This document shows, in pieces, positions 35,233-62,246 of a stretch of DNA of 64,000 nucleotides (position 1 is its first letter; the number at the start of each line of letters is the position of its first letter). The stretch is from an uncultured Gammaproteobacteria bacterium (lineage in GTDB: Bacteria > Patescibacteriota > Microgenomatia > UBA10105 > UBA927). The notes beneath the pieces were generated by a model. The model did not search any database. It was not told where the DNA came from and worked only from the letters and a program-made list of their open reading frames with translations. The stretch covers positions 772,801-836,800 of the forward strand of contig CAYGFH010000001.1 in assembly GCA_964349125.1 (NCBI GenBank), in the 5' to 3' direction. A program made the translations under genes and the position numbers.

Positions 35233-35435
35233 TGTACGAAAAAACGGTATCTGCAAGTTTTCCGCCAAATCCAGATGGCGTAGTTGTTTACTCATCATAA
35301 ATCACTGCGCTATCTGGTCCGTTTTAATACCTCATAGTATTGACTATATACTTACTTATTTGATATACTCTTGCAGTTTCTCATTTTAGTAAAAAAAGGT
35401 TTTTTGCAACCTATAATTTTCTTTGATTGGAAACA

Positions 35436-35459
35436 ATGCACATTTACAGTACAAGAGTA
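35436..35459 (+). repeat. partial copy (3' 24 nt, 2 mismatches) of the 316-bp repeat, upstream of gene A
   Basis: ATGCACATTTACAGTACAAGAGTA versus the repeat end ATGCACATTAACAGTTCAAGAGTA. Confidence 0.6.
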
Positions 35460-35642
35460 GTTTAAGTATCCATATACGTGGGACGCACTAGAGGTAGGAG
35501 AGCTTTTTCTCTTACGTTTGTGCGTCTCAATAATTCCATCTTTTTTACACCAGGAGGTGAACCGTTCCAAAAAGTAAGTTTGTATGTAGTACGTTCGTAT
35601 GCACCAAAAATTGATTCAACTAATAGAAAAGGAAAAAATCGT

Positions 35643-36326
35643 ATGGATACCGTAATTGCAAAAACACGTTTGATCGGTTTGGGCGTCATCAATGATGCAT
35701 TTGACTGGGCGATTGACTCCATCTTTGATCTGACGGTGCTTCGTCAGAAGGGGCGTGACCTGGACAAGGTCATCAAGCGCGTCAATCTCATTCAGGACGG
35801 CGTGAACGCCCGCGTTAACGATCTGAATAAGTGGCTCAAGAGTGCCCGCAGGCACGCCAAAGAATTGGATCGCGATATTACCACCATCCTCAAAGACGGG
35901 GATGAATCAAATGATAGCGATGCCGTCCTCCTGCAGGCTGAACTGACGCCTCTTTTGGAGGAAATCGAAAAGCGCGATGGCAAACTCCAGGAAGCAATTA
36001 AGTCGCGAGACGAAAATCAGGAAATGCTCGACTTCCTGGCTCTGCGCCTCAAGCAAGTGACCGATAAGGTCCGCGAACTGACCGAGACCAAGCAAGAGAC
36101 CAAAACGCTCGAAGAAGCGGCAACTGCTGTCGAAAGCACTGAAGATGTTCTTAAGGAAACCGACGGCTTCCAGAATATCGGAGCCCGCATTCTAGAGAAG
36201 AACGGTCGCGCACGCCAGCGTTATGAACGGGTCACTGCCTCTGTCCAGGAATTGAGTGGCAAGGATTCCACACTGGCTGCCGCTCGCGCTAAGATCGCCG
36301 CTCGCAAGGAAGGTCTCACGAAATAG
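35643..36326 (+). CDS. coiled-coil protein, tentatively PspA/IM30-like
   Basis: Almost entirely helical heptad-like sequence. RBS AAAAGGAAAAAA upstream of the internal ATG at 35643. C-terminal block loosely PspA-like. Confidence 0.45.
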   Translation: MDTVIAKTRLIGLGVINDAFDWAIDSIFDLTVLRQKGRDLDKVIKRVNLIQDGVNARVNDLNKWLKSARRHAKELDRDITTILKDGDESNDSDAVLLQAELTPLLEEIEKRDGKLQEAIKSRDENQEMLDFLALRLKQVTDKVRELTETKQETKTLEEAATAVESTEDVLKETDGFQNIGARILEKNGRARQRYERVTASVQELSGKDSTLAAARAKIAARKEGLTK

Positions 36327-36343
36327 TTTTGCATTTCCATTGT

Positions 36344-36659
36344 TTGGAACTACTCTTGAACGAAATGGATAGTTCGAGGATGCAAGCAATGTCCTCCGGA
36401 GGACATTGACGTCGTGAGACAGTCAGTGTTGGTGCCATTAAGGTACCTTGGGATACAGATGATTTGTGATGTGTCGAATTTTATCGACGCCCCATAGACC
36501 ATCCGTATTCCACCCTCTGCAAACTACGGATGTGTATCCGTACTGATGAGTCCAAAAGGACGAATTTGCAGAAAGAAAAGAATCAAGAAATTATGACACC
36601 ACTCCATAGTCGGGGAGTGCGGTCGTAATCGACTGATGCACATTAACAGTTCAAGAGTA
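36344..36659 (+). repeat. 316-bp structured intergenic repeat, copy 1
   Basis: Identical to 38116-38431. 11-bp terminal inverted repeat TACTCTTGAAC/GTTCAAGAGTA. Internal hairpins include CAATGTCCTCC|GGAGGACATTG and competing ATCCGTA/TACGGAT/ATCCGTA. Confidence 0.9.
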
Positions 36660-36802
36660 GTAATAGTAAAACTGGATATGGGTCGATACAAGAATATACT
36701 TCAATGTATGTCTTTGTATCGTCCCATTTTCAGTTGAAGATACGGATGAATATTCGACTTGTTCGAAGCACCGCTGGAATTATCAAAAAAACTACCCAGG
36801 AG

Positions 36803-38104
36803 ATGACCCCCATGAAAGATATCCGTGCTCGATTGTTGACGCTTTTTTTGCTATGTATCTTAGCAGCGTCTGTCGTCCCCACGAATGCCCGCGCGCAATC
36901 CGCGTGTGATAATGGCATTATCGTGGATGAGACCAATTCCCTCAATGTGCAGAAAGTCTGCGAGGCAATGAAGTTGCTGGCACAGAGAGGCGTGGTAGTC
37001 GGTCTGTTTATATCGGATGAACGGTTCGGTTCGGATGATGAGTGGTATGTGCGCGTTGATGATGTGCAGGTAGAGACTCAGGCACGGTTTCCCCAAGTCA
37101 TTGATAGTGTTGAGCGAATCGAACTGCATCAAAGCGGCTACTTTCTCTCAATAGGAGTTGTTGAGGGAGAAATGACTGCAACGCTTGACATCGGTGGAAC
37201 CTTCGGTTCAGATACACCGATTCATACCGCTGATAAGAACGTAAAACAACAGGTGCTTACGGCAATGACAAGTAATGATCCAACGGAAGGTATTGTTGGA
37301 GCGTTCACCGAGGCATACAACGTCGCATATCCTCCCGATCAACCGTTCTCCATGCCGACGTCACAGCCTACTGCAACGCCCCGTCCTCCCGTGGACATGA
37401 AACCCGTTCGAAACTTTTTTGCCGGGTTTGCGGTGTTGGTGATTTTTGCGGTCGCAGGTTGGCTGTTTATCCGCTTTGGCGTTCCTGTGCTTTCGGAACT
37501 CAACTACCTCAAGGTGCTCATAGACCGTACCGGTGAAATCGTTCGTCAGGCAAATCTAGTGCTCGCGGGCGACGAACCTGAAGGAACCCTCCTTTATAGC
37601 CGCATGGAGGCTAACGGTCTTCATGAATATGCAGATATCGAAACGGCGGCTGTCGAGGCAATCCGCAGGACAATGCGCAAAATCGAGCTTGTCATGAGCA
37701 ATCGCAAGATGCTTTTGGACAACGATAAAGAAGGTGTTCGCACTTTATCCTATCGGGAACGTGTTGAGCAGTTGGAGCTTATCTATCTTAAGCTCATAGG
37801 CACGAGCAATACCGTGCTTGAGATGACGGAGGCAGAAATCGCTGAGCTCCTCCACCCCATGATGGGATTCACTCAGGCGGAAGCTGAGACAGATCCGGAC
37901 GTCCGTGCACTCCAATCTCAATCTCGCTTGCTCGAAGGAAAACCCCTGACAGTGAAAATGCGATACACGGAAATTCGTAATGTCACTGAGGCAGGAATCC
38001 TCATCGATATTAAAAACCTGAAGGCACAGCTTGCTGAATTGCGCGACGCGAAAATAGAAGATCGTCCAGCGGTGAACGTCTTTACAAAACGCACGCGTAA
38101 ATAA
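36803..38104 (+). CDS. TPM-domain membrane protein (YgcG-like)
   Basis: Signal peptide, TPM-like block (IVDETNSL...VVVGLFISDE...RIELHQSGYFLSIGVVEG), one TM, then a cytoplasmic helical domain. Start moved to ATG 36803 after RBS CCAGGAG. Confidence 0.55.
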   Translation: MTPMKDIRARLLTLFLLCILAASVVPTNARAQSACDNGIIVDETNSLNVQKVCEAMKLLAQRGVVVGLFISDERFGSDDEWYVRVDDVQVETQARFPQVIDSVERIELHQSGYFLSIGVVEGEMTATLDIGGTFGSDTPIHTADKNVKQQVLTAMTSNDPTEGIVGAFTEAYNVAYPPDQPFSMPTSQPTATPRPPVDMKPVRNFFAGFAVLVIFAVAGWLFIRFGVPVLSELNYLKVLIDRTGEIVRQANLVLAGDEPEGTLLYSRMEANGLHEYADIETAAVEAIRRTMRKIELVMSNRKMLLDNDKEGVRTLSYRERVEQLELIYLKLIGTSNTVLEMTEAEIAELLHPMMGFTQAEAETDPDVRALQSQSRLLEGKPLTVKMRYTEIRNVTEAGILIDIKNLKAQLAELRDAKIEDRPAVNVFTKRTRK

Positions 38105-38115
38105 CAGCACTGCGC

Positions 38116-38431
38116 TTGGAACTACTCTTGAACGAAATGGATAGTTCGAGGATGCAAGCAATGTCCTCCGGAGGACATTGACGTCGTGAGACAGTCAGTG
38201 TTGGTGCCATTAAGGTACCTTGGGATACAGATGATTTGTGATGTGTCGAATTTTATCGACGCCCCATAGACCATCCGTATTCCACCCTCTGCAAACTACG
38301 GATGTGTATCCGTACTGATGAGTCCAAAAGGACGAATTTGCAGAAAGAAAAGAATCAAGAAATTATGACACCACTCCATAGTCGGGGAGTGCGGTCGTAA
38401 TCGACTGATGCACATTAACAGTTCAAGAGTA
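38116..38431 (+). repeat. 316-bp structured intergenic repeat, copy 2
   Basis: Identical to copy 1 as read by eye. Confidence 0.9.
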
Positions 38432-38642
38432 TACATGTTGGTGATTGGACTACAAAATAGGAACAGAAAGTTTCATTTTTTTCTGGGCCTGTTAGTAGTC
38501 CAATATCAAATCCATTCTATTTCCAAGACAAGGAGCATGATCACGACCAATAATCAAAGGGGCGGTTCGCACTTAATTAAGTAAGCCTGGTCAGCTGAAC
38601 AATGGTGATATTTGAAACAAAAAAATCAATGTGGAGCAGAAA

Positions 38643-39815
38643 ATGAATATCAGAAATATCAAAATCGTTCTAGGACTGGTAATTGCGCTTTTGCTGGTTG
38701 CTGCATGCGGTCCCACCCCGCCAATCGTAGGGTATGGTCAGATCGTTGCAAAGCGCAACTTGAATTATGACCAGTTCAAGCAGCCGACAAGCGAAAAATA
38801 CACCAATTATTTCTATGTCGGTAGTAACTTTTCTTCCATCCAAAGCGATAACTTGAAGGTGGATCTTACGGCGGCAGTTGTGTCAGATGCTCAAGTGGGT
38901 ATCTATACCACCGGCTTTGACGAAAATCAGGTGCCCATCGTTCAGTATCTGCCGAAGGGCGTTTACGACAAAATCCCGGACGAGTTCGTTCGAGTAGTCG
39001 GCGCCGCGATTGTTGACGGTCAACATATGGGCGTGTACTGCAACTATACGGAAGGGCAAGAGTCTTTCCTCATTTTGCCTCCCGGCGAACATCCATACCC
39101 AGATTATATGGTGACGCACTGGCCCGTGGGAGACCGGATGTACCGCACTGTGAGCGATGGCGCGTTCAATGCGTACAAAGGCGGAGACACAGGGCCCACA
39201 GGACCTGGTGGCGGAGCTGATTTGGTTGAGACCAAGATCGACAAAGCGGATCTCAAGGACACCGATTTGGACCTGACATACACTGTGGACGTCGTGTTCG
39301 CCTACGATATCATCCAGAAAAACGCAAAGGTGCTCTGCGACCTCGGAAGTCCCGAGAAGGCAATCCAGCAAATGGTTGCGACACCGATGCGCGGAAAAGG
39401 TCGCACCATCACAGGACAGTTCGGCATCGATGTGGACACTCCACAAAATATCGAGCTTCTGCAAGCCGCTCTCCGCGATATGCTCATTGCTGAGAATGTT
39501 GGACTTCCTGGTAATTTCAAACACGTATCGCTTCGAAGTTTGGAAATTGGAACCGCTGAATATCAAGCCGCCATTCAACAGAATGCGACTGACCTGGCGA
39601 CTGCTCAAGCGCGTGGCTTGCTTCTCGCTCAACTGCAAAGAAACGCAGAAGATGAGAACACGCTTAAGGAAACCATTGCGGAAGGTTGGGCAACGCAGAT
39701 GGAAGCGCTCGGTTGCACTGACTCATGGCAATGCCTTTGGGTTGTTCTGAATGCAACCGAAAATACGCCGTATTTCAATGGAAATGACCTTCAGCAGCCG
39801 CCTCAGGTTCCATAG
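38643..39815 (+). CDS. lipoprotein with C-terminal SPFH/band-7-like domain
   Basis: Lipobox LLVAAC. C-terminal V.V.FAYDI...LR...G...VSLRSLEI...A...A.A..A pattern typical of SPFH. RBS GGAG 6 nt before ATG 38643; the track uses GTG 38631. Confidence 0.5.
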   Translation: MNIRNIKIVLGLVIALLLVAACGPTPPIVGYGQIVAKRNLNYDQFKQPTSEKYTNYFYVGSNFSSIQSDNLKVDLTAAVVSDAQVGIYTTGFDENQVPIVQYLPKGVYDKIPDEFVRVVGAAIVDGQHMGVYCNYTEGQESFLILPPGEHPYPDYMVTHWPVGDRMYRTVSDGAFNAYKGGDTGPTGPGGGADLVETKIDKADLKDTDLDLTYTVDVVFAYDIIQKNAKVLCDLGSPEKAIQQMVATPMRGKGRTITGQFGIDVDTPQNIELLQAALRDMLIAENVGLPGNFKHVSLRSLEIGTAEYQAAIQQNATDLATAQARGLLLAQLQRNAEDENTLKETIAEGWATQMEALGCTDSWQCLWVVLNATENTPYFNGNDLQQPPQVP

Positions 39816-39820
39816 CCTGA

Positions 39821-39832
39821 ACACTCTTGAAC
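39821..39832 (+). repeat. isolated copy of repeat terminal motif ACACTCTTGAAC downstream of gene C
   Basis: Matches the 5' inverted-repeat end of the 316-bp element. Confidence 0.45.
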
Positions 39833-40058
39833 TTTAACAATTGAATAATAGGGAATTGGGGACTCTCGAAAAGAGTGTCGTTCAATTTGATGCTGCCGCA
39901 TCTGAGATCTAGAGATTAATTAGTTAGGTGCCTTTGTGCGCCCTGCCAAATTTCTTTAGATCTTCCCTTGTTCGTTTGAGTTTCGATTATATAAATCGAG
40001 ACTGAAATGAGCAGGGGATGGTAATTATGCGTAAGGCAAATATGTTGATTTTACTGTG

Positions 40059-40088
40059 TTGACAAGATAGTGGGATTGCCAGTACAAT
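40059..40088 (+). promoter_or_regulatory. consensus promoter TTGACA-18-TACAAT
   Basis: TTGACA at 40059-40064 and TACAAT at 40083-40088. Confidence 0.6.
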
Positions 40089-40365: not shown

Positions 40366-40441
40366 TGGGCCCGAAGTTTACCTGGTTGAACGCTTCATTT
40401 GCAATGAAGAGGTAGTCGGTTCGAGTCCGATCGGGTCCACC
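40366..40441 (+). tRNA. tRNA-Ala (anticodon UGC), CCA encoded
   Basis: Full cloverleaf folded by hand. Acceptor GGGCCCG/CGGGTCC with G3:U70, D-arm GTTT/GAAC, anticodon loop TTTGCAA, T-loop TTCGAGT, A73, CCA. Confidence 0.9.
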
Positions 40442-40689
40442 ACGTAACGTCCGAAAGAGCGGACCATGTGGCAAGCCGCAGACAAGAAAGTTCTCGTTTC
40501 GAGACCAGTTACTTCTCTAAGTAACTGATCTCGCGACAAGAGCGCGTTTTGCTCATTAACATTTTGTAAATGACCTTTATATACATGCAGGTGAAATTCC
40601 TGGTATATGAAGTATTGTTATGTAATTAATAAGTAGTTGCATCGTAAGGGATAATCGATTTGATTCTCTTACATGTAAACCCCGATTTA

Positions 40690-40706
40690 ATCGGGGGAAA
40701 ATTTCG
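40690..40706 (+). other. hairpin CCCCGATTTAATCGGGG in the tRNA-23S spacer (partner-like hairpin at 44110-44126)
   Basis: Near-identical hairpins CCCCGATT(T/A)ATATCGGGG flank the 23S 5' and 3' ends, suggesting processing sites. Confidence 0.5.
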
Positions 40707-40764
40707 TAAAATGAACAATGGCCATCCCGCCGCCGAGGCGAGGATGGATCTTTTGTTCTCTGCA

Positions 40765-44095
<3,331 letters not shown>

Positions 44096-44325
44096 AACAA
44101 AGGTTTGATCCCCGATTATATCGGGGTGAAACTCTGTTCAGATACGAATTTTCTGTGTAGGAGCCATTTTGGTTATCCCTTACGGAGCAATTACTTGAGT
44201 GTGTGATGTCATTTACAAAATTTATATGAAGATCTCTGAAGGTATCCCGTTTCACGGGATAGTTCACAGTATGCTTTTTCTCTAGGAATCGAAAAAGCAA
44301 CTGTTCACTAACCGCTTTAGAGTCT

Positions 44326-44443
44326 TCCAGTCTTTTGAGCGACGTGGTACCACCCGATCCCTTTCCGAACTCGGAAGTGAAACGCGTTAGCGCCGACAAT
44401 ACTTGATTCGCGAGAATCTGGGAATATAGGTCAAGGCTGGGGG
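44326..44443 (+). rRNA. 5S ribosomal RNA
   Basis: CCGAACTCGGAAGTGAAACGCGTTAGCGCCGA loop C/helix III consensus. Helix I CCAGTCTT/AAGGCTGG. Confidence 0.8.
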
Positions 44444-60890: not shown

Positions 60891-62246
60891 CTATGCGTCT
60901 TTATTATATTTATGAATGATCCGAAGTATTGTTCTATCTGAGACAGAAAGCTGTAACTGTTCTTTTATTTGCTTTGTCGTTAGATTCTTTTTTGAATAGA
61001 GCATACGTATGTGTCGAATGGTCTCCATGGATACAGATGACGTTCTGGTGTGGTGTGGGCGGGTTGATTTACGTGTTAGTGTTGCGTATTCAGGTAAAGA
61101 TACTGCCCTGTCTCTCCATCTATAAATTGTGGATCGATGTATGCCCAATAGAGTGGCCGTCTTTATCACCGAGCCATTCTGAGATTTCAACGTATCTATA
61201 ATCTGTTGGGGGGTCACACGAGACAAACCCTCAACAGATGACACCGCTCGGTTCTCTGGTGCTATTTGCACTGCACTCAAATCTTCAACAGGGGCGCTGT
61301 TGGATATACGTTCTTCTATAGAAGAATTTGATGATATTAATAGCTTGAATGCCTTGTATATATTTCGGCGTTTACGGATTATCCAAAGTGCCATACCTAT
61401 GAATAGAAGAGAGGAAATAAATATTCTATATGGGAAGATAACGAGGAGTGTAGTTTTAGTAATAGTTTCGCCATTTTCTATTCGAGATTTTATTGTTGCC
61501 TTATAAATGCCCCATTTGCTGTTTTGTATTGTAAATACGGTCTTCCAGGATCTGGATTTACCAGGTAATATTGTTTTCTCATCCAGTTCTGCTGCATCTG
61601 ATTGTCCCCACAACGGAGTTATTGTGAGCGTTGGTTTCGTTGAAAAATAATGAAGTGAATTATTCGTTATTCGCACAGTGCTAGTAATAGGCCCATGTTC
61701 GTATATCAGTTTTTCAAATTGAAACTGGGATATTACAGCCTTGTTCTTCTGAGATTCCTGTATGCCTATGTTTGCAAGCGTGACGACTCCTATTTTTGAC
61801 CCTATTGTTCCGTTGGGGTAGAGAGGCGTAAAGTATATGATCGCATAATACCCTCCTATAGGGACAGTGGAGGGAATAGCAATTTTGACGAAGAATTCGT
61901 GTGATTGACGGGCTGGAATAATGACATCAGGCTCCTCAATGGTAATCCATCGGGCAAGCGGCGAAATCTCAATAGTCGGATCAGGTGTGAACCCGGATAT
62001 CTCATCGGATGAGTCAAATCCCTCTATTGTTGCGCGTAACGGCATAGGTGCGTCTGTAAGGTTCTCAATAGAGATAGGGTAGAGATGCTTTGCACCAGGT
62101 TGCAGTTGTATTTTTAATATGACGGGTGACACGCGAAGTGATGAGGAAATAAAATTAAGCCCGGAAGCCTGCACAAGAGAGATCGGCCTGAGAAGTAGGC
62201 TCGCCAGCAACATGATAAAAAATGATGTATTTAGTATTATTTTCAT
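60891..62246 (-). CDS. DUF916-like extracellular domain + TM + cytoplasmic tandem HTH tail
   Basis: Signal peptide. LRVSPVILKIQLQPGAKHLYPISIENL (DUF916-like). TM FISSLLFIGMALWIIRKRR. C-terminal HTHs IHRSTIYRW and SDRTILRIIHKY. Confidence 0.55.
   Translation of the reverse strand: MKIILNTSFFIMLLASLLLRPISLVQASGLNFISSSLRVSPVILKIQLQPGAKHLYPISIENLTDAPMPLRATIEGFDSSDEISGFTPDPTIEISPLARWITIEEPDVIIPARQSHEFFVKIAIPSTVPIGGYYAIIYFTPLYPNGTIGSKIGVVTLANIGIQESQKNKAVISQFQFEKLIYEHGPITSTVRITNNSLHYFSTKPTLTITPLWGQSDAAELDEKTILPGKSRSWKTVFTIQNSKWGIYKATIKSRIENGETITKTTLLVIFPYRIFISSLLFIGMALWIIRKRRNIYKAFKLLISSNSSIEERISNSAPVEDLSAVQIAPENRAVSSVEGLSRVTPQQIIDTLKSQNGSVIKTATLLGIHRSTIYRWRDRAVSLPEYATLTRKSTRPHHTRTSSVSMETIRHIRMLYSKKNLTTKQIKEQLQLSVSDRTILRIIHKYNKDA

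Follow-up and report, generated by a model that had tools for sequence, protein, structure and literature searches.

Long-range pairing of the sequences on either side of a functional RNA or reading frame is a feature of the RNase III processing stems found in rRNA operons and in the early mRNAs of phage T7 and of the 5'-3' fold-back of hok mRNA, and in systems of this type intercistronic cleavage leaves stabilizing hairpins at the mRNA ends. Clusters of hammerhead ribozymes that flank single genes in prophage and bacterial polycistronic RNAs have been known since 2011; they cut ∼2-kb polycistronic RNAs in vitro, and published examples also self-cleave in E. coli (Perreault et al., PMC3088659). 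In plant retrozymes, a type III hammerhead lies in each of two ∼350-bp direct repeats; further defining features are a noncoding center of 600 to 1000 bp, 4-bp target-site duplications (TSDs), PBS (tRNA-Met) and polypurine tract boxes, and many dispersed genomic copies (Cervera et al. 2016, PMC4918200). Here we analyzed 64,000 nt of contig CAYGFH010000001.1 (positions 772,801 to 836,800; the window) from an assembly labeled as an uncultured Gammaproteobacteria bacterium, in which three genes, A, B, and C, are separated by two copies of a 316-nt spacer that each contain a predicted hammerhead ribozyme. We consider this repeat to be, probably, an intercistronic RNA processing module that combines ribozyme cuts, structured RNA ends, and stems bracketing each gene.

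The A-B-C locus resembles the 2011 clusters (PMC3088659) in having several coding-strand hammerheads between the genes of one unit, an arrangement whose proposed role there was to yield gene-length mRNAs. Unlike those clusters, it is chromosomal, lying beside a tRNA-Ala-23S-5S cluster with no phage genes nearby; its ribozymes are of type III with a flipped 15.1-16.1 pair; each ribozyme sits inside a multihairpin module (∼300 to 340 nt across the locus family) that is identical within the genome; and every open reading frame (ORF) is bracketed by a long-range stem. Sequences flanking an ORF pair over long range here as in the RNase III and hok systems, but the predicted cut is autocatalytic and falls ∼90 to 170 nt from the arms instead of within the stem, and the stems are 12 to 16 bp. 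The type of device is already known, from the 2011 clusters and from one flipped variant, and its chromosomal form here is unusually elaborate. Bacterial hammerheads are widespread and their biological role is largely unsettled; this locus provides a clean, conserved, and testable case, in which ribozymes, end caps, and ORF-bracketing stems appear to act together as an mRNA processing and stabilizing cassette.

The two spacers (36344 to 36659 and 38116 to 38431, both on the + strand) are 100% identical over 316 nt, each made up of a 5' arm, four hairpins, the hammerhead, a 3' hairpin, and a 3' arm. An earlier note on this stretch, made from the letters alone, had judged the copies identical by eye and had seen in the locus a structured, repeated spacer alternating with ORFs; both descriptions are correct. 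Its limits for gene A (35643 to 36326, + strand) and gene C (38643 to 39815, + strand) stand, but gene B, which it began at 36803, more likely starts at 36812 (36812 to 38104, + strand), where AGGAG lies 10 nt upstream and from which homologs of 430 to 431 amino acids (aa) begin with MKDIR. As had been seen, the 3' 24 nt of the spacer recur with 2 mismatches upstream of gene A (35436 to 35459), and ACACTCTTGAAC downstream of gene C (39821 to 39832) matches the motif at the spacer 5' end. With at most 1 mismatch allowed, the window has 7 occurrences of the 11-mer GTTCAAGAGTA, where 1.03 would be expected and none of 100 shuffles had as many; 6 of the 7 fall in the A-B-C locus. The key feature, overlooked in the earlier note, is the hammerhead in each copy. 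That note had suggested folding the repeat, scanning Rfam, and looking for further copies and covariation; these steps gave a stable fold, the hammerhead, and related modules with covariation, evidence that favors an RNA-level cis-element, one of the options it had listed.

Hammerhead ribozyme 1 (36517 to 36571, + strand) is of type III with a U15.1-A16.1 pair, and ribozyme 2 occupies 38289 to 38343 (+ strand). Rfam at gathering thresholds reported nothing inside the repeat, and the hammerhead surfaced only at relaxed thresholds, where RF00008 matched both copies with 42.3 bits (E value, 5.6e-07). A covariance model of the variant family (from alignment A1, below) scored 78.9 bits for each copy and found no others in the window. 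Helix III, which is open, is formed by CUGCAAA and UUUGCAG; helices I and II are closed by loops, with UACGGAU-GUGU-AUCCGUA as helix I and CUGAUGA, GUCC-AAAA-GGAC, and GAA as the core and helix II. The conserved core of the class, CUGANGA and GAA at a three-way junction, is present: both copies and all 40 relatives have CUGAUGA and GAA without exception. The sole departure from the consensus is that A15.1-U16.1 is flipped to U15.1-A16.1, which keeps the pairing and makes the cleavage triplet AAC, and this flip is present in the window and in every retrieved family member. The cleaved nucleotide H17, which should not be G, is C in both copies. The predicted cuts lie between C36524 and U36525 and between C38296 and U38297; self-cleavage after C36524 and C38296 would be expected because sequence, structure, and covariation all point to it.

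One natural U15.1-A16.1 hammerhead has been described, and it self-cleaves weakly (Perreault et al. 2011, PMC3088659); as relayed in PMC3884650, the NHH rule for cleavage sites (Kore et al. 1998) permits A at 16.1. In our ribozymes, as in the 2011 variant, the most conserved pair beside the cleavage site is flipped, and this site lies 3' of an NAH triplet. Unlike that variant, which was treated as a rare low-activity core, the flipped core is represented here by 40 or more different natural sequences that show covariation. We scanned public collections for CUGAUGA-GUCC-loop-GGAC-GAAU and recovered 41 loci in genome contigs and 31 in metagenome contigs. Most matches with a 4-nt loop were complete type III hammerheads, which came mainly from metagenome-assembled genomes (MAGs) of Saccharibacteria, Shapirobacteria, Gottesmanbacteria, Woesebacteria, Dojkabacteria, Microgenomates, and Parcubacteria. 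Of the 41 matches in genome contigs, about 17 are not ribozymes, ten of them lying in one conserved coding sequence of Ruminococcus or Oscillospiraceae and the others being chance-like; this fits the ∼20 chance matches calculated for the core pattern. A scan of the metagenomes with a family-specific pattern that included helix III returned nothing.

Alignment A1 comprises 40 distinct 55-nt GAA-U ribozymes, in which A16.1 is invariant opposite the required U. Its helices are 93.6% paired, compared to 26 to 40% in slid controls, with helix II fixed by the search pattern and the sequences prefiltered for at least 4 pairs in helix III and at least 5 in helix I; the latter two helices are 84.6% and 98.9% paired, respectively. 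Compensatory changes affect 12 pairs in 199 cells, a level that 0 of 500 shuffles reach. Over all parsed hits, H17 was C in 50, A in 5, U in 3, and G in 1, that is, non-G in 58 of 59. On this sequence evidence, the flipped-core hammerheads are a real, selected family, centered on genomes of the candidate phyla radiation (CPR) type. A supposedly essential pair, A15.1-U16.1, is flipped across a whole natural ribozyme lineage, a finding relevant to the rules that link ribozyme structure to function and to search models by which variants of this type are missed. We found no literature linking hammerheads to CPR or Patescibacteria.

In the CPR loci, the ribozymes lie between same-strand ORFs, often 17 to 34 nt before the next start codon. 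Several loci have additional same-strand hammerheads 450 to 1,400 nt from the first, some of them with canonical A-U cores. Gene-flanking hammerhead clusters also occur in other uncultured bacteria known from metagenomes: L064 (7555 to 8293; L numbers denote the loci and lineages retrieved) has two nonidentical hammerheads 684 nt apart with their own 13-bp bracketing stem (TGACAATCACAGC), and L063 (5283 to 6632) has three in series, with flipped and canonical cores mixed. In viral contigs, the same ribozyme body is common in its canonical GAAA form, which occurs there in clusters (at least 120 loci). All 67 parsed viral-contig ribozymes, which were retrieved with the canonical pattern, are A-U, with the flip absent, and the flipped pattern gave a single match in viral contigs, which was not a ribozyme. 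Six viral contigs (L117, L113, L094, L103, L144, and L152) have the same 55-nt type III architecture with canonical cores, 3 to 5 per contig. Five MAGs labeled "uncultured Gammaproteobacteria" (L013, L031, L033, L035, and L049) have ribozymes identical or nearly identical to those of MAGs labeled Parcubacteria or Woesebacteria, or share the CPR-like locus studied here, and these labels look unreliable. The organism of the window is itself probably a bacterium of the CPR/Patescibacteria type, judging from the intron in its 23S gene, the lack of 16S in the window, contigs of 746 to 840 kb, and the CPR labels of the ribozyme relatives.

The ribozyme is only a part of the conserved structure. The 316-nt unit has a minimum free energy of −121.9 kcal/mol (z score of −8.46 versus shuffled controls) and folds into a multibranch structure with a closing stem, four hairpins, the hammerhead, and a 3' hairpin. 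Four homologs folded one by one (window, L033, L008, and L009) share this architecture, with z scores of −4.5 to −8.5. In a five-sequence alignment, from which the structure itself was derived, the nonribozyme helices are 85.7% paired versus ∼40% when slid, with 24 compensatory pairs versus 4 to 9. Six related lineages were recovered, all with the same flipped ribozyme variant core; in L009, H17 is U and helix I contains a 22-nt insertion. The gene order in the window, L033, and L085/L207 is A-spacer-B-spacer-C-tRNA-Ala-23S, and L008, L009, and L010 have one spacer, upstream of C. A conserved alternative pairing of CGGAGG with CCUCUG joins 36397 to 36403 with 36514 to 36519 (alignment A3, columns 55 to 60 with 184 to 189) and overlaps helix III on its 5' strand, where it could act against the ribozyme fold and so be a possible switch.

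That alternative pairing, together with the ∼250 conserved structured nucleotides beyond the ribozyme, the sequence-invariant core of the arms, and the slow cleavage expected from a flipped core, would also suit a ribozyme that is a weak or inactive relic, in a module that works, for instance, as a protein-binding scaffold, as a regulator of transcription or translation, or as a substrate of a host RNase at the arm stems. We think this account unlikely because a relic would not keep an invariant catalytic core, covariation of helices I and III over 40 variants, and an H17 that avoids G. Flipped and canonical cores are, moreover, mixed within clusters of one lineage, which also speaks against it.

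The earlier note had described 11-bp terminal inverted repeats on the spacer. The 11-nt pair, TACTCTTGAAC and GTTCAAGAGTA, is present, but its arms also stand alone outside the spacers, and they are better read as stems that bracket each ORF; in relatives with a single spacer, the pairing across the gene is longer than that within the spacer. In these lineages, the spacer 5' end (CCCCUUGAAC) pairs with the 3' arm over only ∼7 bp (−11 to −12 kcal/mol, near background), whereas the 3' arm pairs with the arm downstream of C over 11 to 13 bp (∼−18 kcal/mol). Each gene has a GUUCAAGAGUA-like sequence in its 5' untranslated region (UTR) and a UACUCUUGAAC-like sequence directly after its stop codon. 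The 5' UTR arm of gene A (35436 to 35466, + strand; core GUACAAGAGUAGUU) is like the spacer 3' end, has equivalents in L033 and L085, and forms 14 pairs (−18.5 kcal/mol) with the arm after A, which is the 5' arm of spacer 1 (36348 to 36361, + strand; AACUACUCUUGAAC). The 3' arm of spacer 1 (36649 to 36662, + strand; GUUCAAGAGUAGU) is also the 5' UTR arm of gene B and makes 13 perfect pairs with 38120 to 38133. For gene C, the 5' UTR arm is the 3' arm of spacer 2 (38421 to 38431, + strand; GUUCAAGAGUA, extended by an upstream AUUAAC), and the 3' UTR arm (39821 to 39839, + strand; ACACUCUUGAACUUUAAC) is conserved in L008, L009, L010, L033, and L207.

Such bracket stems were found for 12 of 12 genes in 6 lineages, with 12 to 16 pairs and −15.9 to −20.7 kcal/mol, and 0 of 200 shuffles reach the perfect 12- to 13-bp stems between the ends of the B unit. 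The arms also change in ways that keep them paired. For instance, L085/L207 have GUUCGAGAG upstream of C and CUCUCGAAC downstream, a compensatory change of A-U to G-C, and L010 has CUUCAAGAG and CUCUUGAAG, a compensatory change of G-C to C-G; the gene B bracket of L085 contains a G.U wobble. These arm changes favor RNA pairing over a symmetric DNA site.

An 11-nt inverted motif that flanks every gene and spacer, is conserved in sequence across lineages, and accompanies perfectly identical copies could also mark a DNA-level element, such as a transposon resembling a miniature inverted-repeat transposable element (MITE), integron-like cassettes, or invertible, shufflon-like segments. We regard this as very improbable. 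The arms of L085 differ in a way that amounts to a G.U pair, tolerated by an RNA helix but mismatched in DNA; synteny of the positions holds for six lineages; and gene orientation is constant in all independent assemblies, which speaks against invertible segments. No recombinase, integrase, or transposase lies within ∼10 kb of the locus, and at 316 nt the spacer is, as the earlier note had remarked, too long for an integron attC site (∼57 to 141 bp). We likewise confirmed that a TSD is absent, as the flanks ...CCATTGT|TTGG... and ...GAGTA|TACATG... share none. Without a TSD, and with only two copies in 64 kb, copies on one contig only (a single locus) in the L033 MAG, and synteny in relatives, the MITE option raised earlier is not upheld. 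No strong promoter-like site was seen inside or after the spacers.

Perfect identity of the copies would likewise be produced by a duplication artefact of assembly, which the earlier note had named as an outcome that would undo its reading. This is extremely unlikely here: the flanks differ on all four sides, and three lineages in independent assemblies have the same two-copy layout, each with lineage-specific sequence. Further, other assemblies of the same organism contain gene B only on contigs of 1.5 to 1.7 kb that end exactly k−1 bases into the repeats, as is expected for a true repeat. Together these observations effectively refute an artefact.

In lineages with two copies, the spacers match each other perfectly, over 316, 320, and 320 nt in the window, L033, and L085, respectively, whereas between these lineages they are 76.6 to 79.4% identical. 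Because the copies are identical within lineages yet ∼22% different between them, these sequences indicate concerted evolution, most simply through gene conversion bounded by the nonhomologous flanks. By spacer similarity, the window is closer to L033 and L085 (77 to 79%) than to L008 and L009 (60 to 66%), which is discordant with gene C, 23S, and tRNA-Ala, for which L008 and L009 are nearer to the window. We first suspected lateral movement of a spacer-B unit, and this was weakened by the third lineage, because B diverges to a degree comparable to a neighboring housekeeping-type gene and A and C evolve fast. The simplest reading of the discordance is stronger constraint in the two-copy state.

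For transcription, we located a promoter-like site (35340 to 35369, + strand) upstream of gene A, TTGACT-18-TATACT with a TG, which is a consensus match only and a candidate start of an A-B-C transcript. A second strong promoter-like site lies upstream of tRNA-Ala/23S (40059 to 40088). After the spacers there are only weak promoter matches (9/12; 36673 to 36700 and 38525 to 38554), and no + strand terminator-like hairpins were found between A, B, and C. This layout of promoter-like sites, with no terminator between the genes, suggests that A-B-C is one transcription unit.

In the processing model that we favor, A, B, and C would be transcribed as one RNA from ∼35340 to 35369, and each spacer would fold into its multihairpin structure, in which the hammerhead would cut itself in vivo after C36524 or C38296 and so free single-gene mRNAs. 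At the start of the downstream mRNA, helix I would form a flush hairpin bearing the 5'-OH, with another long hairpin next to it, and the upstream mRNA would end with four hairpins and a 2',3'-cyclic phosphate. Resistance to end-dependent RNases is expected of both kinds of end. The bracket arms, GUUCAAGAGUA in the 5' UTR and UACUCUUGAAC in the 3' UTR, would then close each mRNA into a panhandle that joins its structured ends, and structured halves and bracket stems would together protect the mRNA ends. The likely purpose would be to allow separate stability and expression levels for the coiled-coil, TPM-like, and SPFH-like membrane-associated proteins encoded by A, B, and C, with gene conversion keeping the two spacer copies identical.

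It is important to note that several points weigh against this model. Cleavage, transcript boundaries, and mRNA stability are all deduced from sequence. The RF00008 score is below the gathering threshold (42.3 versus 48.5 bits), and flipping the 15.1-16.1 pair cuts activity at least 10-fold in tested ribozymes (PMC3088659). The weak promoter-like sites at 36673 to 36700 and 38525 to 38554 could give independent transcripts, and the near-invariant core of the arms would also fit a protein-binding site. Moreover, the covariation of the module comes from five sequences only, and functional selection alone leaves the identity of all 316 nt unexplained.

The two cuts would also release a 1,772-nt RNA holding gene B and one permuted spacer, whose ends re-form a complete module and ribozyme, and this RNA might be ligated into a circular mRNA or a retrozyme-like, possibly mobile, unit, through the reverse hammerhead reaction or an RtcB-type ligase. 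RtcB-type ligases accept 5'-OH and 2',3'-cyclic phosphate ends, which are the ends that the cut products would carry. The two ribozymes are identical, the helix III strands of both copies match at 7 of 7 positions, and the 13-bp bracket stem would hold the RNA ends together. The spacer and B also keep 74 to 79% identity across lineages whose A and C share only ∼40%; B is, however, conserved to an extent similar to the neighboring membrane protein (69%), so that lateral transfer is not required. Since A and C are bracketed too and have one ribozyme each, the stems cannot serve circularization alone, and in most other two-ribozyme clusters the helix III strands do not match. Perreault et al. sought circular or spliced products of clustered hammerheads and found none (PMC3088659).

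The layout mirrors that of retrozymes (PMC4918200) in its two direct repeats, 316 nt here, each with a type III hammerhead, and in that double self-cleavage would give an RNA whose ends can re-form the ribozyme. Unlike retrozymes, the locus is bacterial, its central 1,456 nt code for gene B, with 74 to 78% identity in two other lineages, and it has no TSD, no reverse transcriptase nearby, and a single syntenic locus in place of dispersed copies. We consider a ligated gene B unit of this kind improbable, and we are doubtful, to a slightly greater degree, that a 1,772-nt circular RNA, excised by both ribozymes and with its ends lined up for ligation by the bracket stem and the re-formed helix III, serves to express or propagate gene B. 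If true, it would be a natural circular mRNA made by ribozymes in a bacterium, an equivalent of retrozymes that is prokaryotic and codes for a protein, and a new mode of bacterial gene expression.

Searches of Pfam, NCBIfam, and PDB sequences gave no family for A, B, or C. Gene A encodes a 227-aa coiled-coil protein, with no family recognized. The 430-aa product of gene B has a signal peptide, an N-terminal TPM-like domain, a transmembrane helix, and a helical C-terminal part; the TPM assignment is a weak fold match from a low-confidence model. Gene C encodes a 390-aa lipoprotein-like, SPFH/Band-7-like protein with matches to SPFH folds (prohibitin, stomatin, and HflK/C; E values down to 8e-07), also from a low-confidence model. 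The AlphaFold models have a pLDDT of only 50 and 47, and the SPFH and TPM matches are leads only; the SPFH lead is backed by PF01145, found on the gene C homologs of L033 and L207. Where protein B keeps 74 to 78% identity between lineages, A and C keep only ∼40%. Genes B and C are very rare, with 3 and 7 proteins, respectively, among 5.8 billion.

Two further structured regions accompany gene C. In its 5' UTR, a hairpin formed by UGGACUACAAAAUAGG...GUAGUCCAA (38440 to 38500) is conserved in L009 (420 to 480) and L010 (138 to 200), with apparent compensatory changes, seen by eye, between ACUAC/GUAGU and ACUGC/GCAGU. Behind the 3' arm of gene C lies a structured tail (39840 to 40040, + strand) of several hairpins without a ribozyme, including the long hairpin UCUUCCCUUGUUCGUUUGAG...GAGCAGGGGA. 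This tail (−79 kcal/mol; z score of −6.76) is partly conserved in L008, L009, L010, and L207 and may cap the gene C mRNA at its 3' end.

The neighbors of the locus are ordinary chromosomal genes: copper ATPase, DsbD-like, thioredoxin-reductase-like, GDH, S1 protein, RadA, and PIN-TRAM. The only mobile-element-like signal among ∼25 window ORFs scanned with Pfam comes from an ORF ∼21 kb away (60891 to 62246, − strand), which has several helix-turn-helix (HTH) domains and a faint match to a transposase-type HTH. Directly downstream of the locus, Rfam at gathering thresholds identified tRNA-Ala (40367 to 40439), 23S rRNA (40759 to 44096), and 5S rRNA, which together span 40367 to 44442; the window has no 16S rRNA gene, so that the 16S gene is unlinked. 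The 23S rRNA gene contains a group I intron (43453 to 43722; 65.8 bits in Rfam).

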